Virus record (IMG/VR): IMGVR_UViG_2908567220_000006
Location: 1-43,859 of that record
DNA from: a virus
Lineage: Duplodnaviria > Heunggongvirae > Uroviricota > Caudoviricetes
Length of the DNA: 43,859 bases
Direction: 5' to 3' (one strand)
This document shows positions 12,217 to 37,002 of the stretch, one piece after another (positions within the stretch are counted from its first letter, which is position 1; each line of letters starts with the position of its first letter). A program made the position numbers and the translations under genes. The notes under the pieces were generated by a model, which ran no database searches, was not told where the DNA came from, and worked only from the letters and a program-made list of their open reading frames with translations.

Positions 12217-12810
12217 ATGCCTGCTGAACCTAAAACCTATAAACGCAAATCAACGCAATTTAAGCCACTAACAGCAATGCAGGAGGCTTATTGCCAGTCA
12301 TACATCAAAACGCCTGAAAACCAGACTCAGGCAGCGATTAACGCAGGATTCTCCCCAAATACAGCGGCAGTTAAAGCCAGTGTCATGATGCGCGATGAAC
12401 GCATTCAAAAACGGATTGCCGAGTTGATGGAGGAGCGCAACAAACGAATGCGCGTCAGTGCTGATTACGTTCTCATGCGCCTGGTGGAGATCGACCAGAT
12501 GGACGTGATCGACATCCTCAACGACGATGGGAGCCTTAAACCAATCCGTGAGTGGCCGAAAATCTGGCGCACTACGCTTAGTGGCTTTGATCTGTCATCG
12601 ACCATCATGAACATGAACGAGGATTCGATAGAGACAATCCTCAAAAAAATTAAATGGCCTGACAAGGTGAAGAACCTTGAGCTGATTGGTAAGCATGTTG
12701 ATGTCAACGCGTTCAAAGAACGTCTGGATGTTAATGTGAATGTGACAATTGCTGATCGCATAGCAGCAGCCAGGAAGCGACTCAAAGAACGTCAGGATGG
12801 TAATCAGTGA
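12217..12810 (+). CDS. terminase small subunit
   Basis: Start at MMPAEP with GGTGG SD; about 197 aa, directly upstream of and overlapping the large terminase. The ORF-track start at 12136 would read through the operator copies. Confidence 0.7.
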   Translation: MPAEPKTYKRKSTQFKPLTAMQEAYCQSYIKTPENQTQAAINAGFSPNTAAVKASVMMRDERIQKRIAELMEERNKRMRVSADYVLMRLVEIDQMDVIDILNDDGSLKPIREWPKIWRTTLSGFDLSSTIMNMNEDSIETILKKIKWPDKVKNLELIGKHVDVNAFKERLDVNVNVTIADRIAAARKRLKERQDGNQ

Positions 12811-14282
12811 CAGATACAGCGTTATCTCCTGAAGAGCAGTTGATCGAGGATATTGCAGGGTTCACTCACGATCCGCTTGGCTATGCCCTCTATGCGTTCC
12901 CGTGGGGGGAAGAGGGGACTGAACTGGCACATGCCACCGGCCCACGTCAGTGGCAGGCTGATGCGTTCCGAGAGATACGTGATCACCTGCAGAATCCAGA
13001 GACGCGCTATCAGCCGCTTATGCTGGCACGCGCTTCTGGTCACGGTATTGGTAAATCCGCATTCATCTCAATGCTGATCAACTGGGGCATGTCCACTTGC
13101 GAGGATTGTAAGGTCGTGGTGACCGCCAACACCGACAACCAGCTACGAACGAAGACCTGGCCGGAAATTATCAAGTGGTCGAACCTTGCTATCACGAAAG
13201 ACTGGTTTACCTGTACCGCTACCGCGATGTACAGCAATGATCCTGGACACGACAAGCGGTGGCGAGCTGACGCAATACCCTGGTCTGAGCACAACACTGA
13301 GGCATTCGCCGGACTACACAACGAGCGCAAACGCATCATCGTGGTATTCGATGAAGCGTCGAACATTGCGGATCTGGTGTGGGAAGTTGCCGAGGGTGCG
13401 CTAACGGACGAAGACACTGAGATTATCTGGGTGGCGTTCGGAAACCCGACGCGTAATACCGGACGTTTCCGCGAATGTTTCCGCAAATATAAACACCGCT
13501 GGAAAACTGCGCAGATTGACAGCCGGACGGTGGAAGGCACCAACAAACAGCAGTTGCAGAAATGGGTTGATGACTACGGGGAAGACAGCGACTTCGTAAA
13601 AATCCGTGTGCGCGGCATATTCCCTGATGCATCTGAATTGCAGTTTATCCCTACCGGTCTTACTGACGAGGCAATGAAACGGGTGGTAACTGCTGCGCAG
13701 GTGGCACATGCTCCGGTGATAATCGGCGTTGACCCTGCATACTCCGGTGTTGATGACGCGGTGATATACCTGCGGCAGGGGCTGCACAGTAAGGTGCTGT
13801 GGACCGGCAACAAGACCACTGACGATCTGATTATGGCAAAGCGTATCGCTGACTTTGAAGACCAGTATCAGGCTGACGCGGTGTTCATCGACTTCGGTTA
13901 CGGTACCGGGCTGAAGTCAATCGGTGACGGTTGGGGGCGCACATGGCAACTTGTTCCGTTCGGTGGTGCGTCCACTGACCCGCAGATGCTTAACAAGCGT
14001 GGGGAGATGTTCAATGCATGCAAGACATGGCTGAGGCTGGGCGGCATGCTGGATGACCAGGAAACAGCGGACGAACTGTCGGCGGCAGAGTACAAAGTTC
14101 GCGTGGACGGTAAAATCGTTATCGAACCGAAGGAAGATATCAAGGAGCGGCTTGGGCGTTCGCCGGGTAAAGGCGATGCGCTACTGCTGACGTTTGCTTT
14201 CCCGGTGTCGAAGCGTCTGCGAATTCCCGGTCAGCAGAACCAGCAAGGCAAGGCCATTACAGATTACGATCCCTATGCTTAA
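12807..14282 (+). CDS. terminase large subunit
   Basis: 491 aa; Walker-A-like ARASGHGIGKS; GTG start overlapping upstream stop. Confidence 0.85.
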   Translation: MTDTALSPEEQLIEDIAGFTHDPLGYALYAFPWGEEGTELAHATGPRQWQADAFREIRDHLQNPETRYQPLMLARASGHGIGKSAFISMLINWGMSTCEDCKVVVTANTDNQLRTKTWPEIIKWSNLAITKDWFTCTATAMYSNDPGHDKRWRADAIPWSEHNTEAFAGLHNERKRIIVVFDEASNIADLVWEVAEGALTDEDTEIIWVAFGNPTRNTGRFRECFRKYKHRWKTAQIDSRTVEGTNKQQLQKWVDDYGEDSDFVKIRVRGIFPDASELQFIPTGLTDEAMKRVVTAAQVAHAPVIIGVDPAYSGVDDAVIYLRQGLHSKVLWTGNKTTDDLIMAKRIADFEDQYQADAVFIDFGYGTGLKSIGDGWGRTWQLVPFGGASTDPQMLNKRGEMFNACKTWLRLGGMLDDQETADELSAAEYKVRVDGKIVIEPKEDIKERLGRSPGKGDALLLTFAFPVSKRLRIPGQQNQQGKAITDYDPYA

Positions 14283-14333
14283 TCCTCTGGAGGGGATAAT
14301 GCTGCTGATATCCTCTGGTGAGGATAAAACAAA

Positions 14334-14359
14334 GCCAGCTCATCGGCTGGCTGTTTGTG
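14334..14359. terminator. bidirectional hairpin between terminase operon and convergent moron
   Basis: GCCAGC-TCATCG-GCTGGC stem flanked by T-rich tracts on both strands. Confidence 0.45.
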
Positions 14360-14372
14360 ACATGTCACGGTG

Positions 14373-14729
14373 TTATTGCTCGCTTAACTTCTGCTTCAGC
14401 AAGTAACCTTCGAGCATCCAGATTTTGTTTACAGCATTCTGCCGGGCAATCTTCCGACCAATTTCTGCATCAAAATTTTCCGGACTTGCACAGGCACTCT
14501 CTCCGGTGACGGTGAAGCCATTCTTCAGTACCAATACGCAGAAAGTCAGGAGGTCTGTAGATTTATGCGCTGTCCATGAATCGCCAACGCCCATATTGGC
14601 AGCACGAATGCCGTCATAAGCAGTAAAGAAATGCTCTTCAAGAATGATGCTTTCGATATATTGAGGCGTAACTCGCGGAGCGGTTTTGCCTTTCTCAACG
14701 ATTTCTTTTTCGATTTGCTGGTCGTTCAT
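14373..14729 (-). CDS. hypothetical protein, reverse-oriented moron in the late region
   Basis: 118 aa; AAGGTGAG SD; opposite strand to all flanking structural genes; a weak resemblance to small phage Gp49/Sf6 gp66-like proteins is recalled but unverified. Confidence 0.5.
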   Translation of the reverse strand: MNDQQIEKEIVEKGKTAPRVTPQYIESIILEEHFFTAYDGIRAANMGVGDSWTAHKSTDLLTFCVLVLKNGFTVTGESACASPENFDAEIGRKIARQNAVNKIWMLEGYLLKQKLSEQ

Positions 14730-14740
14730 AATCTCACCTT

Positions 14741-14764
14741 AAAAAAATGCCCGGCGAACCGGGC
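14741..14764 (-). terminator. intrinsic terminator immediately upstream of moron gene
   Basis: GCCCGG-TTCG-CCGGGC hairpin followed on the minus strand by TTTTTTT, about 10 nt before the gene's SD. Confidence 0.6.
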
Positions 14765-14840
14765 GAACTGGAAGCAATGAGTTATGCCTTCCGTGGCTGT
14801 ACTGGTTTACAGCATGAAGTCATCGCAATGGCGTCCTGCT

Positions 14841-14884
14841 GTAAAAAGGGCGGTGATAGTCCTTCAAGGGAAACCATCACCGCC
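14841..14884 (-). terminator. intrinsic terminator downstream of tRNA-Arg
   Basis: 9-bp stem GGCGGTGAT/ATCACCGCC followed on the minus strand by CTTTTT, about 45 nt after the tRNA 3' end. Confidence 0.55.
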
Positions 14885-14927
14885 AAGCACCTGGAACTTC
14901 TGGCATCACGGTCCTTAGGCGTGATTC

Positions 14928-15004
14928 TGGCGTGGCATGCAGGATTCGAACCTGCGACCAACCGCTTAGAAGGCGGTTGCTCTGTCCAGCTGAGCTAATG
15001 CCAC
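14928..15004 (-). tRNA. tRNA-Arg (anticodon UCU)
   Basis: Manual fold of the reverse complement: 7-bp acceptor stem GTGGCAT/ATGCCAC, D-arm GCTCAGCTGGACAGAGC, anticodon stem ACCGC/GCGGT with loop CTTCTAA, T-arm GCAGGTTCGAATCCTGC, discriminator G plus CCA. Acceptor stem differs from my recollection of host argU. Confidence 0.9.
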
Positions 15005-15326
15005 AACGCTGAGAGCACTTAGCCTGTTAAGGCGCCACACTTTGTCGCGGCTCCATAAATGCTCTCATCGTTGTGCCCTCGTCTCTTCCGAGGCGTCACA
15101 CCGAATCGCCGGGATGGTGAATCCCCGTGCGCGGAATAAAACCGCTCGACTTGCACATTCCGGCTACCTGGTTCGTTTGCCCGAGCAAGGGAGGGTGCCC
15201 CTTAAACGTATCCAGACCGCTATCGGCGCATGTGCCATACGCCGTACTGCTCAAAATAAAAGTTCACTCCACCTGTTCAATTTAACGACAAGCCAGTCAG
15301 GTTAATAACCGGAATGAACCCTTTGC

Positions 15327-15341
15327 TTACCTGAAAGGTAA
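15327..15341. promoter_or_regulatory. palindrome copy upstream of portal/head operon
   Basis: Perfect TTACCtgaaaGGTAA about 90 bp upstream of the first ORF of the head operon. Confidence 0.5.
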
Positions 15342-15431
15342 TAATTTGTGCGTTAAATGTCAACTGTCTACGATAAATAAATCATATGTGGTTAAATTGG
15401 TAATAATTTAATTGCGTACGGAGTCATTGAT

Positions 15432-15638
15432 ATGTGCATGGGTAGCTCACCATCAGTGCCTGCAACACCAGAAGTTCAGGCAGCACCACAGGAGCAGGAT
15501 GCCGCCGTTGTTGATGCCCGCGACGAAGAAACTCGTCGCCGTCGCGCTGCTGCTGGTCGTAGTTCTACGCTGCTTACCGGTTCTCAGGGCGACACATCAA
15601 CCGCTAATACCAGCGGTAAAACGCTGCTTGGTCAGTAA
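15432..15638 (+). CDS. small hypothetical protein upstream of portal
   Basis: 68 aa; GGAG SD; its start context cggagtcattga is repeated before the portal start. Confidence 0.4.
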   Translation: MCMGSSPSVPATPEVQAAPQEQDAAVVDARDEETRRRRAAAGRSSTLLTGSQGDTSTANTSGKTLLGQ

Positions 15639-15652
15639 CCGGAGTCATTGAA

Positions 15653-17332
15653 ATGGCGGAAACAACTAAAGAGCGATTGAACAAACAGTTCGCACAACTT
15701 GAAAGCGAGCGTCAGTCGTTCGAGCCGCACTGGCGCGAGTTGAGTGATTACATCAACCCGCGTGGTTCCCGCTTTCTGACTTCTGAGGTCAACCGTAACG
15801 ATCGACGCAATACACGCATTATTGATTCGACCGGGACTATGGCGGCGCGCACTCTCGCCAGCGGCATGATGTCAGGCATCACAAGCCCCGCGCGTCCGTG
15901 GTTTCGCCTGGCTACGCCAGATCCTGAAATGATGGATTATGGCCCTGTTAAGTTGTGGCTTGAGGCGGTGCAGAACCGTATGAACGATATGTTCAATAAG
16001 TCGAATCTCTATCAGTCGCTGCCGCAGTTATACGGAAGCCTCGGCACATACAGCACTGGTGCAATGGCGGTGCTGGAGGATGACGAGGACATCATTCGCA
16101 CAATGCCATTCCCGATAGGCAGTTACTACCTGGCTAACTCACCTCGTGGCAGTGTGGACACCTGTTTTCGCAAGTTCTCTATGACTGTTCGTCAGCTTGT
16201 TCAGGAATTCGGACTAAATAACGTCAGCGAATCCGTAAAAAGCATGTGGGAAAGCGGCACCTACGAGAAGTGGATTGAAGTGATGCATTCGGTTTACCCG
16301 AACATTGACCGCGATACATCGAAGCTGGATAGCAAGAACAAGCCATTCAAATCGGTTTATTACGAGGTTGGTGGCGACAACGACAAGTTGTTACGTGAAT
16401 CCGGATTCGATGAGTTTCCAATTATGGCTCCGCGCTGGGAAGTTAACGGCGAAGATGTTTATGGATCATCATGCCCGGGTATGCTGGCGCTTGGACCTGT
16501 TAAGGCATTGCAGCTTCTTCAGAAGCGCAAGTCGCAGTTGATTGATAAAGCCACCAATCCGCCGATGGTTGCTCCGACTTCCCTCAAGAATCAGCGCGCC
16601 TCCCTTCTTCCTGGCGACATCACGTATATCGATCAGATTACTGGTCAGGATGGTTTCAGGCCTGCTTATCTGGTTAACCCCAGTACAGCAGATCTGGTGG
16701 CAGACATTCAGGACACTCGTCAAATCATTAACAGCGCCTACTTTGTCGATCTGTTCATGATGTTGCAGAACATCAATACCCGCTCGATGCCTGTGGAAGC
16801 GGTGATCGAAATGAAAGAAGAAAAACTTCTGATGTTGGGGCCGGTTCTGGAGCGTCTGAACGACGAATGTCTTAATCCTCTCATTGACCGCGCTTTCTCG
16901 ATGATGGTGCGTAAAAACATGCTGCCGCCACCGCCTGACGCGATGGAAGGCATGCCCCTGAAGGTCGAATACATTTCCGTCATGGCTCAGGCGCAGAAGT
17001 CTATCGGCCTGTCCAGTCTGGCGTCCACGGTTAACTTCATTGGTCAACTTGCGCAAGCGAAACCAGAAGCTCTCGACAAACTCAACGTTGATCAGGCGAT
17101 CGATGCATTCGCTGATATGTCCGGAGTGTCTCCAACCGTCATTGTTCCGCAGGAACAGGTTGAGCAGGCTCGCCAGCAACGGGCACAGCAGCAACAGCAG
17201 CAACAAATGATGGCGATGGGGATGGCGGCGGCACAGGGTGCCAAGACGCTAAGCGAAGCTAAAACTTCGGATCCGAGTGTTTTGTCAGCTATGGCGAATG
17301 CAGTTAGTGGTCAGGGTGGGCAATCACAATGA
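15653..17332 (+). CDS. portal (head-to-tail connector) protein
   Basis: 559 aa; position after the terminase region; Gln-rich C-terminus QQRAQQQQQQQMMAMGMAAAQ reminiscent of T7-type connectors. Confidence 0.7.
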   Translation: MAETTKERLNKQFAQLESERQSFEPHWRELSDYINPRGSRFLTSEVNRNDRRNTRIIDSTGTMAARTLASGMMSGITSPARPWFRLATPDPEMMDYGPVKLWLEAVQNRMNDMFNKSNLYQSLPQLYGSLGTYSTGAMAVLEDDEDIIRTMPFPIGSYYLANSPRGSVDTCFRKFSMTVRQLVQEFGLNNVSESVKSMWESGTYEKWIEVMHSVYPNIDRDTSKLDSKNKPFKSVYYEVGGDNDKLLRESGFDEFPIMAPRWEVNGEDVYGSSCPGMLALGPVKALQLLQKRKSQLIDKATNPPMVAPTSLKNQRASLLPGDITYIDQITGQDGFRPAYLVNPSTADLVADIQDTRQIINSAYFVDLFMMLQNINTRSMPVEAVIEMKEEKLLMLGPVLERLNDECLNPLIDRAFSMMVRKNMLPPPPDAMEGMPLKVEYISVMAQAQKSIGLSSLASTVNFIGQLAQAKPEALDKLNVDQAIDAFADMSGVSPTVIVPQEQVEQARQQRAQQQQQQQMMAMGMAAAQGAKTLSEAKTSDPSVLSAMANAVSGQGGQSQ

Positions 17333-17625
17333 CAGATTACGAAGACGATCAACTGAAAGAAGAAAACGCCCGTAAGCAACGTGACATGGCACAGCGTGAA
17401 ATTGATGACATTCGCTTTGTCATGAGCAGTAAACAGGGGCGTCGCGTTGTCTGGTCGGTGCTGGAGAAAGGCCGTGTGTTTTCCGCTATCTCACCGATGG
17501 ACGCTATGGCAATGGCATTTAATGAGGGGCAACGCAATCTGGCGCTGGAACTGTTTCAGCGCGTTATGGCGCATTGCCCTGAACAGTATTTGAAGATGGC
17601 CAAAGAGGCCAGTGAACAGGAGTGA
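17329..17625 (+). CDS. hypothetical head-assembly protein
   Basis: 98 aa, translationally coupled between portal and scaffold genes. Confidence 0.45.
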   Translation: MTDYEDDQLKEENARKQRDMAQREIDDIRFVMSSKQGRRVVWSVLEKGRVFSAISPMDAMAMAFNEGQRNLALELFQRVMAHCPEQYLKMAKEASEQE

Positions 17626-17627
17626 TC

Positions 17628-18323
17628 ATGAATTTATTTGAGCGTTTGCTGTATCGCCGTCTTTGCAATGAGCAACCAGTCGATGGTGGAGCAGCTCCGG
17701 CTGCGTCAGAACCGTCAGCGCCTGCAGGTGATAACCCTGCTCCAGTTGGTGATCCATCACAACAAGAAGGTGATAAGCCGCAACCTGTTGCTGATGGCGA
17801 TAAACCTGCTGATGACAAAAAGCCTGAAAGCGATAAGCAGGGTGAAAAAAAGGACGGCGATAAACCGGATGGTGCGCCGGAGAAGTACGAGTTTCAGGCT
17901 GCCGAAGGCGTAGAGCTGGATACAGAAGCGTTGAAGGAATTCGAGCCAGTGGCGCGAGAACTTAACCTGACCAACGAGCAAGCGCAAAAGCTGGTTGATG
18001 CTTATCCGAAGATTCTGGCAGGTGTTCAGCAGCGCCAGGCAGAAGCCTGGCAGAAAACAACCGAGCAGTGGGCTGCGGATGTAAAAGCTGACAAAGAAAT
18101 CGGTGGCGACAAGTTGATTTCTAACCTTAGCGCCGCACAGCGTGCGCTTGACCAGTTCGGGACACCTGAACTCAAAGAATATCTGAACACCACCGGGCTG
18201 GGTAATCACCCTGATCTGGTCAAAACGTTCGTGAAAATCGGAAAGGCGATGTCTGAAGATGGCATGGTCACCGGTGGTAATGAAGGCCAGCGTAGTGCGG
18301 CCGAAGTGCTCTATGGCAAATAA
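17628..18323 (+). CDS. scaffolding protein (putative)
   Basis: Acidic, Ala/Pro/Asp-rich, low-complexity N-terminus and helical C-terminus; located between portal and capsid genes. ATG 17628 has a CAGGAG SD. Confidence 0.55.
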   Translation: MNLFERLLYRRLCNEQPVDGGAAPAASEPSAPAGDNPAPVGDPSQQEGDKPQPVADGDKPADDKKPESDKQGEKKDGDKPDGAPEKYEFQAAEGVELDTEALKEFEPVARELNLTNEQAQKLVDAYPKILAGVQQRQAEAWQKTTEQWAADVKADKEIGGDKLISNLSAAQRALDQFGTPELKEYLNTTGLGNHPDLVKTFVKIGKAMSEDGMVTGGNEGQRSAAEVLYGK

Positions 18324-18331
18324 GAGAGGAA

Positions 18332-19324
18332 ATGACAATGGCTGTTAAAGGCTTAACTGCGCTAACGCTGGCTGACTGGGGTAAGCGCGTCGATCCAAAC
18401 GGGAAAGTCGATAAGATTATCGAGCTTCTCAGTCAAACCAACCCAATCCTTCAGGATATGCCTTTTGTTGAAGGAAACCTTCCTACCGGACACCGAACCA
18501 CCATTCGTTCTGGTTTGCCTTCCGCTACCTGGCGTTTGCTGAACTATGGCGTACAACCGAGCAAATCAACAACGGTGCAGGTCACTGATTCCATTGGCAT
18601 GCTGGAAACCTATGCTGAAGTCGATAAGTCTCTGGCTGATCTGAACGGTAATACTGCCGAATTCCGCCTGTCTGAAGACCGAGCATTTATTGAAGCGATG
18701 AATCAGGCGATGGCGCAGACGCTGTTTTACGGTGATTCCAGCGTTAACCCTCAGCAGTTTATGGGACTGTCCTCCCGCTATTCCAGCCTGTCTGCGGGTA
18801 ATGCTCAGAACATCATTGATGCTGGTGGCACGGGTACAGATAACACTTCAATCTGGTTAGTGGTGTGGGGCGAAAACACCGTGCATGGCATCTTCCCGAA
18901 AGGGCAGAAGGCTGGCATCCAGATGGAAGATAAAGGCCAGGTGACACTGGAAGATGCTAATGGCGGCAAGTACGAAGGTTATCGTACCCATTATAAGTGG
19001 GACAACGGGCTGACATTGCGTGACTGGCGCTATGTTGTTCGCATTGCAAACATCGATGTCAGCAATCTTGACGCTCCTTCTACTGCTGCGAATATCGCAA
19101 AACTGATGATTCGTGCCCTTCATCGAATCCCAAATCGTGGGATGGGACGTCCTATTTTCTACATGAACAGAACCATTAACGAAGTGCTTGACCTGCAATC
19201 TCTGGAGAAGAGTTCTCTGGCGATCAGCGTGAAAGAGACAGAAGGCGAATGGTGGACAGAACTTCGTGGTGTGCCGATTCGCGAAACTGACGCACTTCTG
19301 GAAACAGAAGCCCGCGTGGTGTAA
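18332..19324 (+). CDS. major capsid protein (putative)
   Basis: 330 aa, immediately after the scaffold gene and followed by a strong stem-loop, as for T7 gene 10. Confidence 0.6.
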   Translation: MTMAVKGLTALTLADWGKRVDPNGKVDKIIELLSQTNPILQDMPFVEGNLPTGHRTTIRSGLPSATWRLLNYGVQPSKSTTVQVTDSIGMLETYAEVDKSLADLNGNTAEFRLSEDRAFIEAMNQAMAQTLFYGDSSVNPQQFMGLSSRYSSLSAGNAQNIIDAGGTGTDNTSIWLVVWGENTVHGIFPKGQKAGIQMEDKGQVTLEDANGGKYEGYRTHYKWDNGLTLRDWRYVVRIANIDVSNLDAPSTAANIAKLMIRALHRIPNRGMGRPIFYMNRTINEVLDLQSLEKSSLAISVKETEGEWWTELRGVPIRETDALLETEARVV

Positions 19325-19350
19325 CGCCTGTTATTAACCTGTGGGTCGTA

Positions 19351-19369
19351 ACAGACCCACTAATGGAGA
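19351..19369 (+). terminator. stem-loop after capsid gene
   Basis: GTGGGTC-GTAACA-GACCCAC perfect 7-bp stem; no T-run, so possibly a processing or attenuating structure. Confidence 0.4.
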
Positions 19370-19375
19370 AAGAAG

Positions 19376-19813
19376 ATGATCACCGACAAACTGTTGATGT
19401 TCTCCGAAGCTCAGGCGGTTACGAATACCGCGGCTTCTACTGACGTAATCGATCTCGGTCCAATTGACGGAAACCGTCGCGATATCGGTGTGGGTTACCC
19501 GCTTGAGTTTTGGGCGCTGGTTAACGAAGCCGCCACGGCAAGTGGTGAGGCAACTGTAAACATCCAGTTGCAGACGAGTGAGAATAACAGCTCATGGTCC
19601 ACTATTTATGATAGTGGCGCACTGGCAAAGGCCACCCTGACAGCAGGTAAGCGAGTTGTTTCTGCAAAGGTGCCAGCCGGTGTTCAGCGATATCTGCGTG
19701 TTAACTACTCCGTCGCAACTGGCCCACTAACGGCTGGCAAATTCACTGCGGGTATCAATCTTGATGTTGATGCCAATACGCCGTATCCGATCCGCTCAAA
19801 AGTAACTGGTTAA
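19376..19813 (+). CDS. hypothetical virion protein (possible capsid decoration)
   Basis: 145 aa, strong SD, beta-rich composition. Confidence 0.45.
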   Translation: MITDKLLMFSEAQAVTNTAASTDVIDLGPIDGNRRDIGVGYPLEFWALVNEAATASGEATVNIQLQTSENNSSWSTIYDSGALAKATLTAGKRVVSAKVPAGVQRYLRVNYSVATGPLTAGKFTAGINLDVDANTPYPIRSKVTG

Positions 19814-19814
19814 G

Positions 19815-20159
19815 GTGATATTGATGTCAGGTGAGAAACCAAGATACCGCGTTCTGCGCCTCTCTCATATCCATAACACTCTGTGGCCGGAGGGGGCAGA
19901 AATCGAATACGAAGGTGAGCCTGGTAGCGCACTGGAACCTGTTAACGATGCAGCCAGACAGGCAAAAGCAAAGGTAGCAGGAAAGGTGTCTATGGCAGCA
20001 ACCAGCACCAAAATCATCAACGATGTGTCAGATGATGGTGAACTGGATAAGCTCCGTGAAGAGTACGAATTGCTCTTTAACGAGAAGCCACACCATAACG
20101 CCAAAGCAGAAACGCTCCGCGAGAAGATCGCAGATAAGCGTAAAGAACTGGGCGTGTAA
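19815..20159 (+). CDS. hypothetical virion protein
   Basis: 114 aa; followed by an intrinsic terminator. Confidence 0.45.
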   Translation: MILMSGEKPRYRVLRLSHIHNTLWPEGAEIEYEGEPGSALEPVNDAARQAKAKVAGKVSMAATSTKIINDVSDDGELDKLREEYELLFNEKPHHNAKAETLREKIADKRKELGV

Positions 20160-20175
20160 GCCTCGCGGATGAGAC

Positions 20176-20197
20176 AAGGGGCTTCGGCCCCTTTATT
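20176..20197 (+). terminator. intrinsic terminator
   Basis: AAGGGGC-TTCG-GCCCCTT hairpin followed by TATTG. Confidence 0.55.
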
Positions 20198-20203
20198 GCA
20201 GGA

Positions 20204-20533
20204 GTGTATATGGAACTCGTAAACCTCAAAACCGGCACTGACAGCTACCAGGATGAGAGCGGAGAAACCAGAACTCGCGATGAATACCCGTGGGGGCTGT
20301 GCATCACGCTGAATAACGACACATTGAATAAGCTGAAGGCGCAACCTCAGGGCGTCGGAACAGAAGTGATGATAACTGCAAAGGCTGTTATTCGAGGCCT
20401 GTCTGCCAGAGAAACTGACGATGGCGTTAATCGCAGCGCCGATCTGCAGATCACTGATATGGCGATCGCTCCTGTTTCCGGGGATGTAGAAAAATCAGCG
20501 GCTGAAACTCTGTACGGTAACGGAGGTGAGTGA
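20204..20533 (+). CDS. hypothetical virion protein
   Basis: 109 aa. Confidence 0.45.
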   Translation: MYMELVNLKTGTDSYQDESGETRTRDEYPWGLCITLNNDTLNKLKAQPQGVGTEVMITAKAVIRGLSARETDDGVNRSADLQITDMAIAPVSGDVEKSAAETLYGNGGE

Positions 20534-30300: not shown

Positions 30301-30784
30301 TATCTTCGCACAGCATAACAGGGTGCTGGTATCTGGTATCCAGCAGGGCGATGCTGCATTCTATCTTGGTGCGCTTGGCACGATTGCGCTTGGCTCAATG
30401 GTCTATATGATGAAACAGAAGTTAAGCGGTCGCGATATCGACTACAGCTGGAATAACCTTGTGAAAGAGGGGATCGACCGGGGCGGAATGCTTGGCTGGC
30501 TCTCTGAGCCGCTGAATACCGTTGAGAACATAAGCGGCGGTAGGTTTGGTCTTGGCGCGATGTTTGGTGCGCCTCCGGTATCAAGGTTTCAGAGTCGTAA
30601 TGCTATTGGTGCTTTACTTGGTCCTACCTTTGATCTTGGCGGTGATGCCGCGACGGTTGCAAATGGTGTACTTAACGGAGAATTTGACAGCCAGCAAACC
30701 CACGCTGTCCGTAAAATGCTACCTTTTCAGAATCTGTGGGCGATATCACCATTACTAAATAAAGTTGAAGAGCAGATGAAATAG
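27395..30784 (+). CDS. very large internal virion/ejection protein (T7 gp16 position)
   Basis: 1129 aa with long coiled-coil-like stretches; last core gene before the accessory island. Confidence 0.5.
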   Translation: MPIYEQDPKELLGEDIQQIAAPDDSNFYMETPSLLSAVNPFTSDQRVQRSRQAAFRIDNTLGSFIASAPFSQFDRVEGYNPFDNDAADIKGYEDFADSFINSGSHEETMAIKHRIDKQRTDREYLSEMGGAGTISSLAMGMIDPVNVAAMFIPVGAVARGGSIAETAGRFALANAAGGGVSEAALQATQEARSPMESVSNVVVDALVGGILGAGAQLLAGPSAREAVVNSVGNHLRGMDSPQSIGAAQVFNTTLDQEQLAGLGLANKTLSVTPAGRLAQSPSLVSRQINQQLAENNYFFAKNDEGLATFTAVETKIKQYDAMLYKQMEATRDAYQQYSKSVSARGVKRMNFIDFNEAVGMAMRRGDQSDIPEVSQAAARIRPIFETTKARMQELGILPEDIDVVTAKSYLPRIYKFDKILSDRTEFRGRIANWIQVISAKGADKAGQRIEKINSLLKTAEESAPRADALASEIAEAEKWSGKKILLMEELDKRNKLISQETDTQARLTRIEKELAETSSEKLQARMMKESSDLKTRLDDIAQAKSELPVYQRHMELLDNPRKYRSELRRLQKRANSTTRLNASRERALKQMEPLSREEAEDAADEIVNKIIGAPSGLVPADIIPERLVGRAGFTKSRTLLIPDERIEDFLESDVNYIMESYLRQVAPEIELTAQFGRKDMGEQIRQVSEEYTRLIKEAKTPKRRAVLEKQREADIRDITAMRDRLLGTYGAPQDPRSFFVRAGRVARNINFLRLLGGMTVSAATDLMRPMMQHGLRKSLGPMVSMLKNMDSVKIATRDLREMAVGLDYVLSTRTKAIADLTDPYSRRSAAERGLNWMTQKFGNWTLMNQWNSALKSWSGMIVQSRILDAARQVSAGGTLSKSEMRKMAQVGINEDVLRRIGEQFGKHGEDMDGLLTGHSHLWDDRFAREIFQSAVLKDVDSVIVTPGVGDTPLFFSKEGWKMITQFKTFIFAQHNRVLVSGIQQGDAAFYLGALGTIALGSMVYMMKQKLSGRDIDYSWNNLVKEGIDRGGMLGWLSEPLNTVENISGGRFGLGAMFGAPPVSRFQSRNAIGALLGPTFDLGGDAATVANGVLNGEFDSQQTHAVRKMLPFQNLWAISPLLNKVEEQMK

Positions 30785-30785
30785 G

Positions 30786-31637
30786 ATGAAAAAAATAAAT
30801 TTGTTTTTTGGCATAGTGCTTTCAATAGTCTCTGTAAATCCTACAGCTGCCAGTTCATTGCAATGCAATAAGGATAACTTTGATGCATGCAAAACGTGCG
30901 AACAATTATCAAAGGCTATCGACTTAAAAGAACCTAATCGTGGCGATTACTATAGAGGGGCTTTATGGAATGGGCTTTACGCCTCTTATGTAATTAATTG
31001 CCCTGTGGTTGCAGAGAAGTTACTGAGCCATGGTGCTATACCATCATATGGCGGATATATGGGGTCTATGGGGGCGGTTCTGACAGGAAAATGGCCTCAT
31101 AACAATGAATCAATAAATCTTTCATGGGCAGATTTGCTTATAAAACATGGATTTGATGTTAATAGGCATACGGGGAATTATAAATCAGCTACTGAAGTAT
31201 GGGCTATAGATAAAAAACAGATTGAATATAAGTCAGTTTTTGACAAGTTAATTCAATCCAGCGAAGTAAAACCACTCGATCCTTCAAGAAATTTAGAATG
31301 GTGTGCGTCTGAAGGGTATCGCTCAGTTGTCGTTTATTCCCTTAACTCATGTATAGAAAATGCTATAAAACGTTTGGATGACGGTGTTTCTTCAGCGTCT
31401 GATATTTCATCAGCAGCCGTAAATTCCTGTACTAGCGATGTAGAAAATTTCAATAAGCATTTGGCATGCAAAGCAGCTGTTAAAGAAAACTCTGATAAAG
31501 AGAGAAGCAACGTTTACCAGTTATTAACCAGTGATAGTCAAATGAATAAAAATGTTATTGATATGCTGAAGGAAAGAAATATTGAAACGGTTCTTGAATT
31601 TAGAGCTGAAAATCGATCAGCGAAAACTGCACAGTGA
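30786..31637 (+). CDS. secreted Cys-rich protein with ankyrin-repeat-like segments (moron)
   Basis: N-terminal signal peptide MKKINLFFGIVLSIVSVNPTAA; AT-rich codon usage unlike flanking genes; segments ALWNGLYASYVINCPVVAEKLLSHGA and WADLLIKHGFDVN resemble ankyrin repeats. Confidence 0.55.
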   Translation: MKKINLFFGIVLSIVSVNPTAASSLQCNKDNFDACKTCEQLSKAIDLKEPNRGDYYRGALWNGLYASYVINCPVVAEKLLSHGAIPSYGGYMGSMGAVLTGKWPHNNESINLSWADLLIKHGFDVNRHTGNYKSATEVWAIDKKQIEYKSVFDKLIQSSEVKPLDPSRNLEWCASEGYRSVVVYSLNSCIENAIKRLDDGVSSASDISSAAVNSCTSDVENFNKHLACKAAVKENSDKERSNVYQLLTSDSQMNKNVIDMLKERNIETVLEFRAENRSAKTAQ

Positions 31638-31643
31638 TCAAAC

Positions 31644-31668
31644 AGGCCGCTTTCGCGGCCTTGTTTTT
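31644..31668. terminator. intrinsic terminator shared by convergent genes
   Basis: GGCCGC-TTTC-GCGGCC hairpin followed by TTGTTTTT on the plus strand. Confidence 0.6.
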
Positions 31669-31828
31669 AACGAATGCCACCGCCGCCCGGACGGGAATCC
31701 GCAGAACGCCCACCGCAGCGGGAGCCGTCAGCGGCAGTATCGCTGTCGTGCTGACAACGACCGGCAAAGGCCTGAGTTGAAGCTACCAGAGACAACAAAA
31801 CGAACAGTGCAGCAAATGCTTTTTTCAT
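31667..31828 (-). CDS. small secreted Gly-rich hypothetical protein
   Basis: Start at MKKAFAALFVLLSLVASTQAFA (signal-peptide-like); weak SD. Confidence 0.35.
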   Translation of the reverse strand: MKKAFAALFVLLSLVASTQAFAGRCQHDSDTAADGSRCGGRSADSRPGGGGIR

Positions 31829-31911: not shown

Positions 31912-32424
31912 CTATGCAGGCTTTTTGGATTTGTACGAATAATCCCACGGATAAACATTTCTACTAAGTGGAGCTGTATTCGTTCGTTCATGAAATAATT
32001 TTGTGAAATTCAATACGGAATCCATCCAAACTTTTGCGTTAGCTTTGGTGTGTGCGGGCGGGTCCCAATAAGCTAGTAAGGCTGCATCTCTTATTTCATT
32101 GACTGCATATATGAGATATGCGTTACTGGTTGGTTTTGGCCTGTAATTTCCTTGTTCATCAATCAATCCATATGACCACTCATCCCAACACTGTTCAGTA
32201 CATGAGTATGAATATGATGCATATTCACCAATATTGACATGAACCTTTCTGAGATGGAAGCCTAATACTTCCTCTGGTCTTTCAAAAAGAGTATCTTTTC
32301 CCAGATCAGGATGATGACCATGACGCCAGTGTTGTTTAAAAGCATCTTTTAGCGAAATCAGAAAGTCATCAGTTTTAAACTCACCAGTAGGTATAACCTT
32401 CCCGCTATACTCACTCAAAAACAT
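31912..32424 (-). CDS. hypothetical protein B (170 aa), downstream gene of a two-gene accessory operon
   Basis: Start overlaps the upstream gene by 14 nt; AT-rich; motif region HWRHGHHPDLGKDTLF...GFHLRKVHVNI; no confident family assignment. Confidence 0.55.
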   Translation of the reverse strand: MFLSEYSGKVIPTGEFKTDDFLISLKDAFKQHWRHGHHPDLGKDTLFERPEEVLGFHLRKVHVNIGEYASYSYSCTEQCWDEWSYGLIDEQGNYRPKPTSNAYLIYAVNEIRDAALLAYWDPPAHTKANAKVWMDSVLNFTKLFHERTNTAPLSRNVYPWDYSYKSKKPA

Positions 32425-32737
32425 CGAATTCCTCTTCCTTCATATGCGTTTCTAATGAGTTAAGCTGGCGGAAAGATATCTCTTTTGATTCTGCAGATGA
32501 GAGTTTTTTTATCCGCTTTATATTCTTTGTGATAGGAATAGACATTGTATGCACATCAGCGGATGCTCTTGGCTTTGTGCTGATAAAAATATGGCGCAAT
32601 GCCGCATTTTCACTATTGAACGAGCCAATAGCTGATTTACGTGCTACAACCTTACCAGTAAAAATACGACTCTTGCTACGCTTTGCATGAGTTCCGCTTC
32701 TTACCGGACCTCTCATCACGAATCCAAGTTTTGTCAT
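32411..32737 (-). CDS. hypothetical protein A (108 aa), upstream gene of a two-gene accessory operon
   Basis: GGAG SD 7 nt before the ATG; basic N-terminus; candidate promoter (-35 TTGCAG, -10 TACTAT) abutting the palindrome at 32780-32794. Confidence 0.5.
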   Translation of the reverse strand: MTKLGFVMRGPVRSGTHAKRSKSRIFTGKVVARKSAIGSFNSENAALRHIFISTKPRASADVHTMSIPITKNIKRIKKLSSAESKEISFRQLNSLETHMKEEEFDVFE

Positions 32738-32779
32738 CTTTAATCTCCGGTAAGTTACAGGTATAAAATAAAAACAGGT

Positions 32780-32794
32780 TTACCTTTAAGGTAA
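32780..32794. promoter_or_regulatory. palindrome copy at promoter of two-gene accessory operon
   Basis: Perfect TTACCtttaaGGTAA 43 bp upstream of the 108-aa gene start. Confidence 0.5.
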
Positions 32795-32867
32795 TAGTAC
32801 GCTATTCACCCCCGGTCTGCAATCTGTACAGAATTATTTAAAGGCACGTCCCTGTGCCGCCGACCCG

Positions 32868-33560
32868 TCAGAAGAACCCTGCCTTGTCGTTGATGTACTC
32901 CGCGTGGGTCTGGATATCACGCAGGCATTTGCTCACACCGACGATGTAGCAGAACATGGTGGTCAGTTCCGCCGCCGCGCCCGATACATCGTGCCCGTCT
33001 TCCTGTAACTGGTTCAGCAGATTCATCAGCAGTGAGTTCTCCGTCAGGCCGAGAACACCAGACGGCGAGTGAATCAGGCTACGGTAGCCGGGCTTCAGCG
33101 GGGCGCTGTAGGTTTTGTTCTCTATCTTCATCGCCTGCATTACTGCTGACGCCGTGGCGTTGGCTACCTGGTCGGCAACCATCTTTATGCGTTCTTCCTG
33201 CGGGAGCGAGTTTTTAATGTAACTTCCGGTGCGGCGGATCTGAGGAAGAACCTCACCTGTAACCCATTCAAGAAATCTGAATGCTCTCGTTCCCTCAGTC
33301 ATTGCCTCTTTGCAACGCAGAATAAGGATGTAGAGACCTGATTCTGAAACGATGGATAGTTCTTGTATTCCACCAGGGGTCTGTATTGAATACAGCCCCT
33401 TTTTGTTCCAGCCTTTTTTATCAAGTTTTCTCGCTTGTGTAACATCAATATTCAAAGCATTGCACACATCTTTGGTGACAAACCAAGGTTCTCCGTCAAT
33501 CATGAACATACGGATCTGGCAGGATGACTCAAAGGAAAAGATGGAAGGTTTGGTATTCAT
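32868..33560 (-). CDS. antirepressor (Bro-N domain with C-terminal Ant/KilA-C-like domain)
   Basis: Start at MNTKPSIFSFESSCQIRMFMIDGEPWFVTKDVC (Bro-N signature) with AAAGGTGA SD. Confidence 0.7.
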   Translation of the reverse strand: MNTKPSIFSFESSCQIRMFMIDGEPWFVTKDVCNALNIDVTQARKLDKKGWNKKGLYSIQTPGGIQELSIVSESGLYILILRCKEAMTEGTRAFRFLEWVTGEVLPQIRRTGSYIKNSLPQEERIKMVADQVANATASAVMQAMKIENKTYSAPLKPGYRSLIHSPSGVLGLTENSLLMNLLNQLQEDGHDVSGAAAELTTMFCYIVGVSKCLRDIQTHAEYINDKAGFF

Positions 33561-33827
33561 GGCGATCACCTTTGTAGTTAGGTTAATCACCACCGCTGAG
33601 ACCAATCAGATGGTGGTGAACTGTGCAGAGTTGGTCTTACCGGCTACAAAGGAACCCGGCGCACCTTTCGGTGCCCCCACACAGCCCACCATAGAATAGG
33701 TGCGCTTTACACATAAAAAAACCGCTTATGCGGCATATGTGCCTCTGTAGTAATCCGGGAGACCAATCCCGGCACTGGATTTTGCCAGTGCCCGATTACT
33801 ATGGCACAAGAGGAGTGCGATGTAAAT

Positions 33828-33842
33828 TTACCGCAAAGGTAA
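33828..33842. promoter_or_regulatory. palindrome copy upstream of Bro-N antirepressor
   Basis: Perfect TTACCgcaaaGGTAA. Confidence 0.45.
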
Positions 33843-33873
33843 ATATAAGCACTCCATTTGGTAATTGCAAACC

Positions 33874-34131
33874 TTATCTGGTTTGTTTTCGTAATTGTTC
33901 GGCACAATAGTCGAGATGTGTTTGCAGATCCTGCATAGACATCTGTGAGCTGGTGACGTAGTTAATCAGTGCAGTCAGTTCGGCAAGTGGGCCATCGACA
34001 TTAAATCCATCCTTATCGAGATCCCGGAGTAATTTCATCAAGTGCGATCCCTCCACCAGTGACCTGACGCCTCCCGGCGTGTGAATCCTTTCGGTAAATC
34101 CGTCTTCCAGTGGATAGTGATACTGCTGCAT
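33874..34131 (-). CDS. small antirepressor-domain protein, paralog of the Ant C-terminal domain; putative SOS-inducible antirepressor
   Basis: Start at MQQYHYPL with GGAG SD; SHLMKLLRDLDKDGFNVDGPLAELTALINYV...DLQTHLDY aligns by eye with the Bro-N antirepressor C-terminus; a LexA box overlaps its promoter. Confidence 0.55.
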   Translation of the reverse strand: MQQYHYPLEDGFTERIHTPGGVRSLVEGSHLMKLLRDLDKDGFNVDGPLAELTALINYVTSSQMSMQDLQTHLDYCAEQLRKQTR

Positions 34132-34152
34132 CTTATCTTCTCCATGCAATAA

Positions 34153-34326: not shown

Positions 34327-37002
34327 ATGACGGTCTCAACCGAAGTTGACCACAACGAATACACTGGCAATGGTGTTACGACGACATTCCCTTACAAATT
34401 TAGGATCTTCAAAAAATCAGATCTGGTAGTACAGGTTGTTGACATTAACGAGAATATAAACGTACTGGTTCTTGATACAGATTACATCGTCACCGGAGCA
34501 GGAGGGTACAGCGGCGGTAATGTAATTCTCTCGAAGGCGTTGGCTAACGGTCATCAGATATCTATATCACGAGAACTACCAGCTACTCAGGAAACGGATT
34601 TACGTAATCAGGGTAAGTTCTTCGCTGAGGTACATGAGGATGCGTTCGACAAGTTGACCATGCTTATCCAGCAGTGCTTCAGCTTTCTACGCCTGTCCCT
34701 GCGCAAGCCCTCTTTCATCGCGAACTATTACGATGCGCTCAACAACCGCATTCGTAACCTGCGTGACCCGTCACAGGCGCAGGACGCAGCCACGAAGAAT
34801 TATGTTGATGGGCAGATCGTTGACAATACCAATGCCTGGAAAGCTGGTGATGACATTCTTGATCAGAAAATTGATAGCAATTTCCGAAGAACAATTCGGG
34901 TTCCTGAAAGTGATGTTGATATGGTTCCTACTATAGCTGCAAGAAAAAACTCGCTATTTGGGTGGAACAGCTCCAGTCAACCTGTCCCGATATTTTCTAT
35001 GACGGAAACTGCTGACCTGGCTATTAAGCTAGCAAGCACTGAGATGGGATTGGGTGGCAACCTTGTTGGTATTTACGATGGACGACCGCCAGTTGTTGTT
35101 ACCAATACAGTAACAGATAAAATCAAGGATGGTGCAGCCGGCCTGCGTAAGGATTTCGGAGCTGTAGGTGACGGATACCACGACGATACCGCCGCTTTTA
35201 ATGACTGGTGGGAATGCCTCATGGACCTTCTCTATAAGCGCCGGGGTGTTGAGAGCGACGAAACTGCAGTGCCGTTTATGCTTCAGAAAGGGCCCAGACT
35301 TCATATCGAAAACGGCACATTTATTTATAACGGTCCCGGACTAAATATCACTGATACTGACGCATTTGTTTTTATCGCCGATGGTGAGAGTTCGCTCGCT
35401 ACAAAAATTTTGCTTCCGGATGGTGTTTACTTATTCGATTTTGATAAAAACCCGGTTCATGCGCACCTTGCCAATCTGACCATTCATGGTGGGCTTGGTG
35501 CAGTGCGTTATAAATCTAAACAGCGTTCAACTAACAGCATTCATCTTTTTGAAAATCTACGACTGTCTCGATATAAAGAATGCGGTATTAGTAATAATGC
35601 TATCGATATGCCGTATTTTCGTGTCAGTGGCTCAATGTTTTACGGGGACCCGACAAAACAAACCGTTGGTGTTTGCGTTTCAGGATATGCCGCCGGTGGT
35701 TTTATTCGTGATTCCGTTTTCAGTGATAACCGATACGGCATTAAGTTGGCTGTAGGGAAAAACAGCGTCGAGAGCAACGGCCCTGCAACTCCATACCTTA
35801 TTCAGTGCAATGATTTTTACCGTACTGGTAATCGCGGAGGCTCTGCATCATACGACATCTGGATTGAGCCGGGGGTAACCAGCAATAATGCCGGTCGCGG
35901 TATAAAACTGAGTCAAAACAAGTTCGGACAGGAGAACTTAAAATCTCCGGATACGCATATTTTGATTGCTGATGCCGCTGTATCCGGTAGTGGCTTAGGG
36001 CTAAATGGCGACAGGGCTCACGTTGAAACGCAGTCGGCAGGTTTTGTTTCTGGGGTGAGGTTTGACGGCAATGATGTTAACTCAAACAGCGCCGGGTATA
36101 TTGCGCCGTTTATCCGGACATTTACACCTAACGTGGGGAATTTCAGGTTTTCTGATTTGTACGACAACGATATGCCATCACGCATCATTGAGTTTGCAGG
36201 TGGTATTACTCAGTCACAAATAGGGAACCTGGGGCGTACAAATGTGTTTGACGCGTCTATGTGCCTGGCATTGCAGAAAGGTGTTGAACCTAAGCTGCTA
36301 TCCAACATGAATGACGTCTTCCGCCTGATTGATCCTCTGAATTATTACGTGGGGCACCCGCAGTCAACACTGGTTCCTGTTGGGGGCCAGCAGGATGATT
36401 TTGAATTACTTTACTCCGGTCCTACGTCTACTATCGGACTTAGTAACGCCAGCCGGTCATCGCTCAATAATTCATATGGGGGAATATTTGAAGCAGCTGA
36501 AATCACAATGAATACAGACGAAGGTCGCGCAGTTGCGTCTATAAGTGGTGGGCTGGCGGGGCGTAAACACTGGATTGATTTTGATATTCGTCGAGGCTCT
36601 TCAAATCCCGTAGGCTCTGTTGTGATGGAGGTCATGGACCCTACAGGGGTAACCATTCTGTTTCGTAGAATAATCCTGGTTGATACCATTACTCGATGGC
36701 AAAAAGTCGTTCTCCCGTACATTCCTAATGTAAACGGAGATATTATCGTCCGGTTCCGCTCAAATGTTTATGTGGCTGGATCAGCTACGAATTTTGTTAT
36801 TGGCAACCTCAATGTTTACCGAAACGAAACGCCAGTGAATACGGGGCATAATAGCGGTCTGCGTATGCAGTGGGATCTGCAACACGCAGTGAAAGGCGCA
36901 CGACATGAATGGTATGATAATGCAGGTAATCTGAGAGCTAAAAATGGTGCGCCGACGTCTGCCACCGATGGCGTAATTATCAGTGCAAACCCGGTAGTGT
37001 GA
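34327..37002 (+). CDS. tailspike protein (N-terminal particle-binding domain plus beta-helix-like enzymatic domain)
   Basis: 891 aa; N-terminus MTVSTEVDHNEYTGNGVTTTFPYKFRIF typical of podovirus tailspike/fibre adaptor domains; long Gly/Asn/Ser-rich beta-rich body. Confidence 0.75.
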   Translation: MTVSTEVDHNEYTGNGVTTTFPYKFRIFKKSDLVVQVVDINENINVLVLDTDYIVTGAGGYSGGNVILSKALANGHQISISRELPATQETDLRNQGKFFAEVHEDAFDKLTMLIQQCFSFLRLSLRKPSFIANYYDALNNRIRNLRDPSQAQDAATKNYVDGQIVDNTNAWKAGDDILDQKIDSNFRRTIRVPESDVDMVPTIAARKNSLFGWNSSSQPVPIFSMTETADLAIKLASTEMGLGGNLVGIYDGRPPVVVTNTVTDKIKDGAAGLRKDFGAVGDGYHDDTAAFNDWWECLMDLLYKRRGVESDETAVPFMLQKGPRLHIENGTFIYNGPGLNITDTDAFVFIADGESSLATKILLPDGVYLFDFDKNPVHAHLANLTIHGGLGAVRYKSKQRSTNSIHLFENLRLSRYKECGISNNAIDMPYFRVSGSMFYGDPTKQTVGVCVSGYAAGGFIRDSVFSDNRYGIKLAVGKNSVESNGPATPYLIQCNDFYRTGNRGGSASYDIWIEPGVTSNNAGRGIKLSQNKFGQENLKSPDTHILIADAAVSGSGLGLNGDRAHVETQSAGFVSGVRFDGNDVNSNSAGYIAPFIRTFTPNVGNFRFSDLYDNDMPSRIIEFAGGITQSQIGNLGRTNVFDASMCLALQKGVEPKLLSNMNDVFRLIDPLNYYVGHPQSTLVPVGGQQDDFELLYSGPTSTIGLSNASRSSLNNSYGGIFEAAEITMNTDEGRAVASISGGLAGRKHWIDFDIRRGSSNPVGSVVMEVMDPTGVTILFRRIILVDTITRWQKVVLPYIPNVNGDIIVRFRSNVYVAGSATNFVIGNLNVYRNETPVNTGHNSGLRMQWDLQHAVKGARHEWYDNAGNLRAKNGAPTSATDGVIISANPVV

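Follow-up and report, generated by a model that had tools for sequence, protein, structure and literature searches.

epsilon15 (Uetakevirus epsilon15, NC_004775) is the founding member of a lineage of temperate podoviruses, the genus Uetakevirus and its close relatives, and integrates beside a guaA-type sequence. The lineage also includes phiV10 (Uetakevirus phiV10, NC_007804), and Uetakevirus prophages with modular tailspikes have already been described from E. coli (PMC10408124; PMC9782041). The DNA analysed here is a stretch of 43,859 nucleotides (IMG/VR record IMGVR_UViG_2908567220_000006, positions 1 to 43,859; hereafter the window). Positions 1-39313 of the window are almost certainly an E. 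coli prophage of this lineage that has integrated at the guaA 3' end. The closest isolated phage is EC.W1-9 (PP445227), from sewage in Korea.

A megablast search of positions 12217-37002 against 50,697 phage records returned EC.W1-9 as the best match, with 82% coverage and 98.1% identity. phiV10, TL-2011b, the O157 typing phages 9 and 10, phiv142-3, PAS61, HEMP4 and ZX5 match at approximately 50-57% coverage and 96-97% identity, relatives from Enterobacter and Klebsiella at approximately 81% identity, and epsilon15 at 36% coverage and 77% identity. Apart from hits confined to a tRNA gene, described below, the isolates that match the late region are all epsilon15/phiV10-type podoviruses. Between the gene for the small terminase subunit (terS) and the gp14-like gene, the DNA is 96-98% identical to phiV10. 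For the early region (1-12216), matches come from these phages again and, in addition, from many Shiga toxin (Stx)-converting lambdoid phages.

The proteins tell the same story. From terS to the gp14-like protein (12136-24648), identities to phiV10 in BLASTP range from 94.5 to 100%, with E-values down to 0, so that chance is no issue. Orthologues from epsilon15 follow in the same order at 37-94% identity, with terL at 94%, the nozzle at 88%, the adaptor at 84% and the portal at 81%, whereas the capsid, cement and staple proteins are just 37-43% identical. The genes from terS to the gp14-like gene, and the lysis genes, are syntenic and orthologous to those of both phages. An earlier note, made from the letters and open reading frames (ORFs) alone, had suspected a resemblance to the epsilon15/phiV10 group; both searches bear this out, and the late region is essentially that of phiV10. 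A siphovirus or myovirus structural module, which the note had named as the observation that would speak against it, is not present.

Prophages of this kind are common. The head and tail block (15653-24648) occurs in 563 of 5426 complete E. coli genomes (approximately 10%) and is at least 80% covered in 502. The NCBI Prokaryotic Genome Annotation Pipeline (PGAP) already labels its genes as portal, Bbp19, Bbp16 cement, gp10 staple, phage connector and 'virion core protein, T7 gp14 family'; NCBIfam supplies no names for the structural proteins. The architecture is the published one of epsilon15 and phiV10, and there is nothing new in kind. Near-identical prophages lie beside guaA in about one in ten complete E. 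coli genomes, and the assignment has little importance beyond correct annotation.

Three points weigh against the assignment. Intergenomic similarity, a BLASTN-based estimate that approximates VIRIDIC and was computed with a prophage that is incomplete within the window, is 72.4% to EC.W1-9, whose record carries no genus, 57.8% to phiV10 and 36.2% to epsilon15. The values for the two classified Uetakeviruses lie below the usual 70% genus threshold, so formal genus membership is not established by this measure. Secondly, the phage's own integrase and attL fall outside the window, so that the window does not show a complete prophage. Thirdly, two virion proteins, the nozzle and the protein in the gp15 position, are not directly tied to their T7 counterparts gp12 and gp15.

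The right end of the prophage is sharply defined. Homology to phiV10 (phiV10 26523-26736, 99%) extends up to window position 39313, and from 39297 on the window is homologous to the guaA 3' end and the downstream DNA of a prophage-free strain. The overlap of these two homologies forms the attR core, ATTGAGTGGGAATGATT. In homologous prophages (EC21, 20AR0300) the order is guaA-int-(phosphatase or DUF1382)-methylase...Rz-attR-yfgI, and the window begins at the equivalent of the base 2 nt past the stop codon of int. One would therefore expect the phage's own integrase and attL immediately to the left of the window. Phages of the lineage integrate beside guaA by means of a P4-type tyrosine integrase; judging from the homologous prophages, such a gene would stand next to guaA here as well.

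The IS2 and IS1 insertion sequences nearby and the lack of a phage integrase within the window could also be taken as signs of a defective, decaying prophage remnant instead of an intact phage genome. We consider this unlikely. Both insertion sequences lie outside attR, the late genes are all full length in comparison with the isolated phages phiV10 and EC.W1-9, and the position at which the window was cut accounts for the missing integrase.

A 396-aa tyrosine integrase is present further to the right, and the earlier note had counted it as part of the phage, which would make the window up to approximately 40.9 kb a single element. The gene directly follows the lysis genes, the place that the integrase occupies in the linear maps of phiV10 and epsilon15. 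However, the attR core lies upstream of the gene, which places it outside the prophage, and phiV10 homology has ended by then. The same integrase (98.5% DNA identity) directly adjoins guaA in the prophage-free genome NZ_AP027899.1, and it is merely 53% identical to the integrases of phiV10 and epsilon15. Homologous prophages carry their integrase at the opposite end, beside guaA. That this gene is the phage's own is very improbable; it belongs to the neighbouring island remnant. Positions 39314-43859 hold what is left of another integrative element at this guaA site. The occurrence of this integrase beside guaA without a prophage points to tandem or successive use of the attachment site. As a by-product, the analysis now delimits the prophage on its right side and sets it apart from the foreign integrase next to it.

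The earlier note had described the genome as a mosaic of lambdoid early genes and a T7-like morphogenesis region with the gene order of T7 gp8-gp17. T7 (Autographiviridae) shares with the window the order portal, capsid, adaptor, nozzle, gp13, gp14, large ejection proteins and fibre or spike. The ORF map contains this series on the plus strand. The two genes of tail-tube size encode 202 and 823 aa (T7 gp11 has 196 aa and gp12 has 794 aa), and the four internal proteins that the note had put at about 150, 190, 900 and 1100 aa are encoded consecutively (23609-30784) with 154, 191, 915 and 1129 aa. The stem-loop that the note had placed downstream of the capsid gene was also recovered. The genes for Bbp19, the Bbp16 cement protein, a 114-aa protein, the gp10-type staple and a 283-aa protein, and an antisense cassette, had been passed over. 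A gene for a 233-aa protein occupies the scaffold position as stated, and its product may be a scaffold or a protease: it has no Pfam match, the PDB sequence search returned no match, and the phiV10 and epsilon15 records label it 'protease'.

Pairwise BLASTP of the late proteins against T7 gp6.7-gp19 gave nothing significant, so that any relationship must be remote; the same search gave the strong matches to phiV10 and epsilon15. Profile and fold evidence supports a tie to T7 at six positions: the portal, the gp11-type adaptor, gp13, gp14, gp16 and the tailspike N-terminus. The portal family PF12236 also holds T7 gp8 (2.8e-113), with reciprocal matches for phrog_332 and phrog_449. The 154-aa protein belongs to phrog_308 (9.2e-63), as does T7 gp13 (1.1e-42), and the 191-aa protein matches the Pfam family PF24072, T7_gp14 (4.4e-08, 33.7 bits against a cutoff of 27). 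phrog_342 contains both the 1129-aa protein and T7 gp16 (E = 0). The tailspike N-terminus shares several PHROG families with the N-terminus of T7 gp17; its match to PF03906 (Phage_T7_tail) is below cutoff. By family assignment, the proteins in the gp9 and gp10 positions are in families other than those of T7, whose gp10 belongs to PF21703. A further by-product is that each T7 correspondence is now graded as shown, indirect or not shown.

For the tail, the nearest relatives with solved structures are the marine podophage Carin-1 (PDB 8CK1) and the Legionella phage LME-1 (PDB 9EFK), which infect other hosts and with which the tail proteins were compared. In the predicted model of the adaptor, the link to T7 gp11 is visible at the level of the fold only. 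The AlphaFold (AF2) model, with a predicted local distance difference test score (pLDDT) of 84, matches the Carin-1 connector 8ck1_E at 2.4e-16 and, over its full length, T7 gp11 (7box_M) at 3.7e-6 with a template-modelling (TM) score of 0.56-0.58 in Foldseek. Many other T7-type adaptors are also matched; the P22 tail complex reaches an E-value of 0.35 only. The sequence profile finds Carin-1 (1.3e-40) and LME-1 (1.7e-06). There is no match to the Pfam family PF17212 ('Tube'), and hhalign detected no similarity when an adaptor alignment was compared with the T7 gp11 sequence by itself.

The nozzle is tied to T7 gp12 indirectly, through Carin-1 and LME-1. In a PDB sequence search it matches the Carin-1 'Tail Nozzle' 8ck1_A at 9.9e-218 and the LME-1 nozzle 9efk_M at 1.5e-15, and nozzles of this type structurally resemble their T7 counterparts (PMC12407071). 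No match to the Pfam family PF25675 was obtained. An AlphaFold model of the nozzle, built on a shallow alignment in which all homologues returned were at least 82% identical, had a pLDDT of 42.7 and was not used in the fold search.

Could a lambdoid phage have recombined recently with a T7-like (Autographiviridae) one to give a new hybrid? The order of portal, gp11- and gp12-sized genes, gp13-16-like genes and fibre parallels T7, and the early region shares DNA with Stx and lambdoid phages. The recent hybrid is nevertheless effectively refuted, as none of the T7 structural proteins has a significant pairwise match. The ORFs of at least 500 aa in the window are all accounted for (portal, nozzle, two ejection proteins and tailspike), which leaves none for a single-subunit RNA polymerase, and the homologous phage genomes annotate no such gene. 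The terminase genes precede the portal gene and are of another type, and the capsid of the epsilon15 gp7 type is accompanied by cement and staple proteins; T7 lacks equivalents of these two and of the 114-aa protein. The same combined architecture exists already in epsilon15, phiV10 and approximately 10% of E. coli genomes. T7 carries a fibre, in contrast to the tailspike of the window. The window also departs from the strictly lytic, one-strand organization of T7 in having a repressor, recombination genes, an att site and genes on both strands, with a tRNA gene and antisense genes interrupting the operon. The resemblance to T7 is one of deep common ancestry of the podovirus virion module and not of recent recombination. 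Least probable of all is a P22-like (Lederbergvirus) prophage. P22-like phages share with the window the temperate podovirus type, the O-antigen tailspike, a Bro/antirepressor gene and early genes of the Eae/Ea22 kind. Against this reading, the portal is of the T7 type, E-values of the adaptor model are 1e-6 to 1e-16 for the adaptors of T7 and Carin-1 but 0.35 for the P22 tail complex, and no P22 or Lederbergvirus record is among the matches listed for the late region.

Recent mosaicism does exist, as judged from the alignments, within the epsilon15/phiV10 lineage. Gene order is that of phiV10 throughout, including the repressor/cro/DnaT-like/P layout, and the attP sequence beside the Rz gene is shared as well. 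The late operon, with its HK97-fold capsid protein, keeps the arrangement conserved in the lineage. Exchanged relative to phiV10 are the distal ejection cassette (approximately 25.4-31.6 kb), the antisense cassette, the receptor-binding domain of the tailspike and several early genes. In the ejection cassette, the N-terminal 500 aa of the 915-aa protein are 45% identical to phiV10 p18, whereas its C-terminal half is unrelated to p18 and without an equivalent elsewhere in phiV10. In place of phiV10 p19, p20 and p21, the window has the 1129-aa and 283-aa proteins. phiV10 p19/p20 and epsilon15 gp16/gp17 belong to phrog_1145 and phrog_684, not to phrog_342, so the distal ejection proteins form a non-orthologous cassette; epsilon15 gp16 and gp17 are unrelated to those of the window. 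EC.W1-9 carries the variant cassette, with protein identities of 99.5%, 97.9% and 100%. The 1129-aa protein (97.9% in EC.W1-9) is 92.6% identical in a Klebsiella prophage and approximately 40% identical in small Vibrio podophages; the distal cassette is approximately 37% identical in TL-2011b.

The lineage therefore holds at least two non-orthologous ejection-protein cassettes, which could interest research on the trans-envelope channels of short-tailed phages. The variant occurs in 120 of the 5426 complete E. coli genomes. From its sequence relationships, the cassette may be a functional alternative ejectosome module that, in roughly 20% of such E. coli prophages, has taken the place of the gp16/gp17 pair known from epsilon15 and phiV10 and is related (approximately 40%) to internal proteins of small marine Vibrio podophages; we hold this proposal to be evenly balanced. 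If it is true, the channel-forming part of DNA delivery is exchangeable between distant podophage lineages, with the portal, tail and gp13/gp14 staying fixed. By analogy with T7 and epsilon15, the core proteins would be packaged on the portal and then ejected as a channel across the envelope, and the transglycosylase domain of the gp15-position protein would open the peptidoglycan.

The families of the 915-aa protein and of T7 gp15 gave no significant profile-profile match (probability 0.8%, E 0.067). The match of the 1129-aa protein to the gp16 family begins at profile position 192, and the N-terminal transglycosylase domain of gp16 is therefore missing. The transglycosylase domain sits in the gp15-position protein in the window, as in epsilon15 gp15 and phiV10 p18; T7 shows the reverse arrangement, with the domain at the gp16 N-terminus. 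A PDB sequence search with the 1129-aa protein gave nothing useful. PGAP names this protein 'DUF919 family protein' after a Pfam match to a nucleopolyhedrovirus family (aa 530-575, 46 aa, 23.4 bits against a cutoff of 21); the name looks misleading, the short match being probably to a coiled coil. The 283-aa protein at the end of the operon has the signal-peptide-like N-terminus MKKINLFFGIVLSIVSVNPTAASS and several cysteines, and has no family other than phrog_6118, to which no function is assigned. These features suggest that it could be a moron or exclusion protein that is secreted, and not a virion core protein.

Table 1 Features of the window, in order of position; evidence as E-value, identity or context.
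Feature	Position	Strand	Evidence
Ser/Thr phosphatase, calcineurin-like	1-780	-	Pfam PF00149 2.4e-15
RecT	2007-3029	-	Pfam PF03837 2.6e-57
YqaJ-type exonuclease	3039-3938	-	Pfam PF09588 2.7e-23
Immunity repressor	4543-5127	-	HTH_3 1.3e-10 at aa 105-146; YdaS-like HTH at aa 20-60
Gene in cro position, 76 aa	5282-5512	+	Divergent from repressor; position and length as phiV10 p41
Initiator in 'O' position, HTH_36 and DnaT domains	5880-6695	+	PF17948 1.1e-15; PF13730 1.8e-10
Helicase loader, lambda P family	6677-7477	+	PF06992 1.5e-56
DUF1064 gene	7595-7939		Pfam match
Terminase small subunit, terS	12136 or 12217 to 12810	+	PF03592 1e-29; 100% to phiV10 p01
Terminase large subunit, terL	12807-14282	+	phrog_2 4.9e-53; 99.2% to phiV10 p02
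tRNA-Arg (UCU)	14928-15004	-	ARAGORN; between terL and portal gene; annotated as tRNA-Arg in related prophages
Portal, T7 gp8 type, 559 aa	15653-17332	+	PF12236 1.6e-187; 99.1% to phiV10 p07
Small protein, Bbp19 family	17329-17625	+	PF25181 5.9e-17
Protein in scaffold position, 233 aa	17622-18323	+	phrog_458 'protease' 4.6e-111
Major capsid protein, epsilon15 gp7 family, 330 aa	18332-19324	+	PF20911 1.6e-148
Hairpin, 7-bp G+C-rich stem, no T-run	19341-19360	+	17 nt past capsid stop; -18.2 kcal/mol, z = -2.99
Cement protein, Bbp16 type	19376-19813	+	PF21190 1.2e-48
114-aa protein, no assigned function	19815-20159	+	
Terminator-like hairpin	20176-20193		Between 114-aa gene and staple gene
Staple protein, epsilon15 gp10 type	20204-20533	+	PF21628 1.2e-51
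Tail adaptor (tail tubular protein A), 202 aa	20530-21138	+	T7 gp11 fold
Tail nozzle (tail tubular protein B), 823 aa	21138-23609	+	
Internal core proteins, gp13-like (154 aa) and gp14-like (191 aa)	23609-24648	+	
Ejection protein in gp15 position, 915 aa	24648-27395	+	Lytic transglycosylase domain at ~aa 243-400
Ejection protein, gp16 family, 1129 aa	27395-30784	+	phrog_342 2.5e-235, profile positions 192-1227
283-aa protein, signal-peptide-like N-terminus	30786-31637	+	phrog_6118; 100% to EC.W1-9 protein
Terminator of structural operon	31644-31661		After 283-aa gene
Antisense cassette	31912-34149	-	GC 0.42; between core proteins and tailspike
170-aa protein, weakly YafO-like	31912-32424	-	PF13957 7e-4, 20.1 bits, below cutoff of 25
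108-aa basic protein	32411-32737	-	Upstream of 170-aa gene, 14-nt overlap
Antirepressor-like protein, Bro-N	32868-33605	-	PF02498 2e-13
epsilon15 gp19-like protein	33874-34149	-	
Tailspike, 891 aa	34327-37002	+	N-terminal anchor of ~165-250 aa; exchanged C-terminal beta-helix receptor-binding domain
Lysis cassette: membrane protein, holin, GH19 endolysin, Rz/Rz1 spanins	37383-39186	+	79-88% to phiV10 p27-p30; PGAP names
attR core, right end of prophage	39297-39313		17-bp overlap of two homologies; duplicate of guaA 3' end
Island remnant, not phage	39619-43449		Tyrosine integrase, IS2, hypothetical protein, IS1
Tyrosine integrase, 396 aa	39619-40809		Outside attR
IS2	40945-42218		TnpB 1.1e-218; TnpA 4.3e-83
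209-aa hypothetical protein	42269-42898		In island remnant
IS1 transposase	42946-43449		6.4e-42

The early region was described in the earlier note as carrying lambda-like cI/cro/O/P genes (4543-7477). From the domain content, the term lambdoid is fair for the layout and for P but fits neither the repressor type nor the O gene. A gene of the DnaT/HTH_36 type occupies the O position, and the Pfam search reported no lambda O family for it. For the repressor, the counterpart of phiV10 p40 and epsilon15 gp38, the Pfam search found helix-turn-helix (HTH) domains only and no S24 (LexA-like) peptidase domain. The lack of a peptidase domain, together with the Bro-N antirepressor-like gene, makes antirepressor-mediated induction the likelier mode: by analogy, the HTH repressor would hold the prophage and would probably be inactivated by the Bro-N antirepressor and not by RecA-mediated self-cleavage. 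The position of the 76-aa gene, and that alone, suggests a Cro function.

By family, the recombination genes are of the RecET type and not lambda Red; RecT and exonuclease are encoded separately, as in epsilon15, whereas in phiV10 they are fused. The phosphatase gene occupies a variable accessory slot at the integrase-proximal end. Beside the methyltransferase gene, this slot holds the phosphatase in the window, DUF1382 in phiV10 and a DGQHR-domain protein in the EC21 prophage. Further early genes encode a PerC-family regulator, an AlpA-type regulator, DUF1064, Lar and Ea22-like accessory proteins. The Lar-family restriction-alleviation gene (11188-11490, PF14354 7.8e-09) lies in a nin-like region upstream of the terminase genes. 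The ORF directly upstream of terS (11754-12095) has no Pfam match. A minus-strand ORF at 7577-8347 overlaps the DUF1064 gene, has no family match and was treated as spurious.

The tailspike conforms to the pattern of the lineage, a conserved anchor joined to an exchangeable receptor-binding domain. Its N-terminal part (approximately 250 aa) is 63% identical to epsilon15 gp20 and 48% identical to phiV10 p25, and matches Carin-1 Dpo31 at 6.8e-24. Beyond approximately aa 250-340 of the window spike, phiV10 has another tailspike. Spikes of phages from unrelated genera (Gamaleyavirus, Vectrevirus, Raoultella and Klebsiella phages) share 57-63% identity with the receptor-binding domain; horizontal exchange and modularity of tailspikes have already been described for Uetakevirus (PMC10408124). 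By analogy with T7 and epsilon15, the tailspike would bind and cleave O-antigen. The window lacks the O-acetyltransferase gene that follows the tailspike in phiV10 and the serotype-conversion genes of epsilon15. EC.W1-9 differs from the window in the receptor-binding domain of the tailspike, the genes of the antisense cassette, the gene between terL and the tRNA gene, the DNA of the staple gene and several early genes.

The antisense cassette has BLASTP matches to phiV10 p23 and p24. Its 108-aa and 170-aa genes are of low GC content (0.42) and have a toxin-antitoxin-like arrangement; neither protein has a PADLOC or NCBIfam match. A homologue of the 170-aa protein with 47% identity is found at another position in EC.W1-9. 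PADLOC, applied to the antisense cassette, the phosphatase, the 283-aa protein and further accessory genes, matched no defence system.

phiV10 has the hairpin that follows the capsid gene in identical form, and in EC.W1-9 one pair has undergone a compensatory change from T:A to C:G. epsilon15, with an intergenic gap of just 12 nt, lacks the hairpin. The tRNA-Arg gene overlaps the 3' end of a phiV10 p04-like ORF (14747-14998), which may for this reason be spurious. Over 68 nt, the tRNA shares 91% identity with the tRNA-Arg of the Synechococcus myophage S-RIM2; the 64 Synechococcus phage records that match the late region do so through this gene only. Just past the terminator of the structural operon, a small minus-strand ORF (31664-31825), noticed by eye, encodes a 53-aa peptide with a signal sequence (MKKAFAALFVLLSLVASTQAFAGRCQHDSD...). 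Its counterparts are 53-aa hypothetical genes annotated in EC.W1-9 (25753-25914) and in the EC21 prophage.

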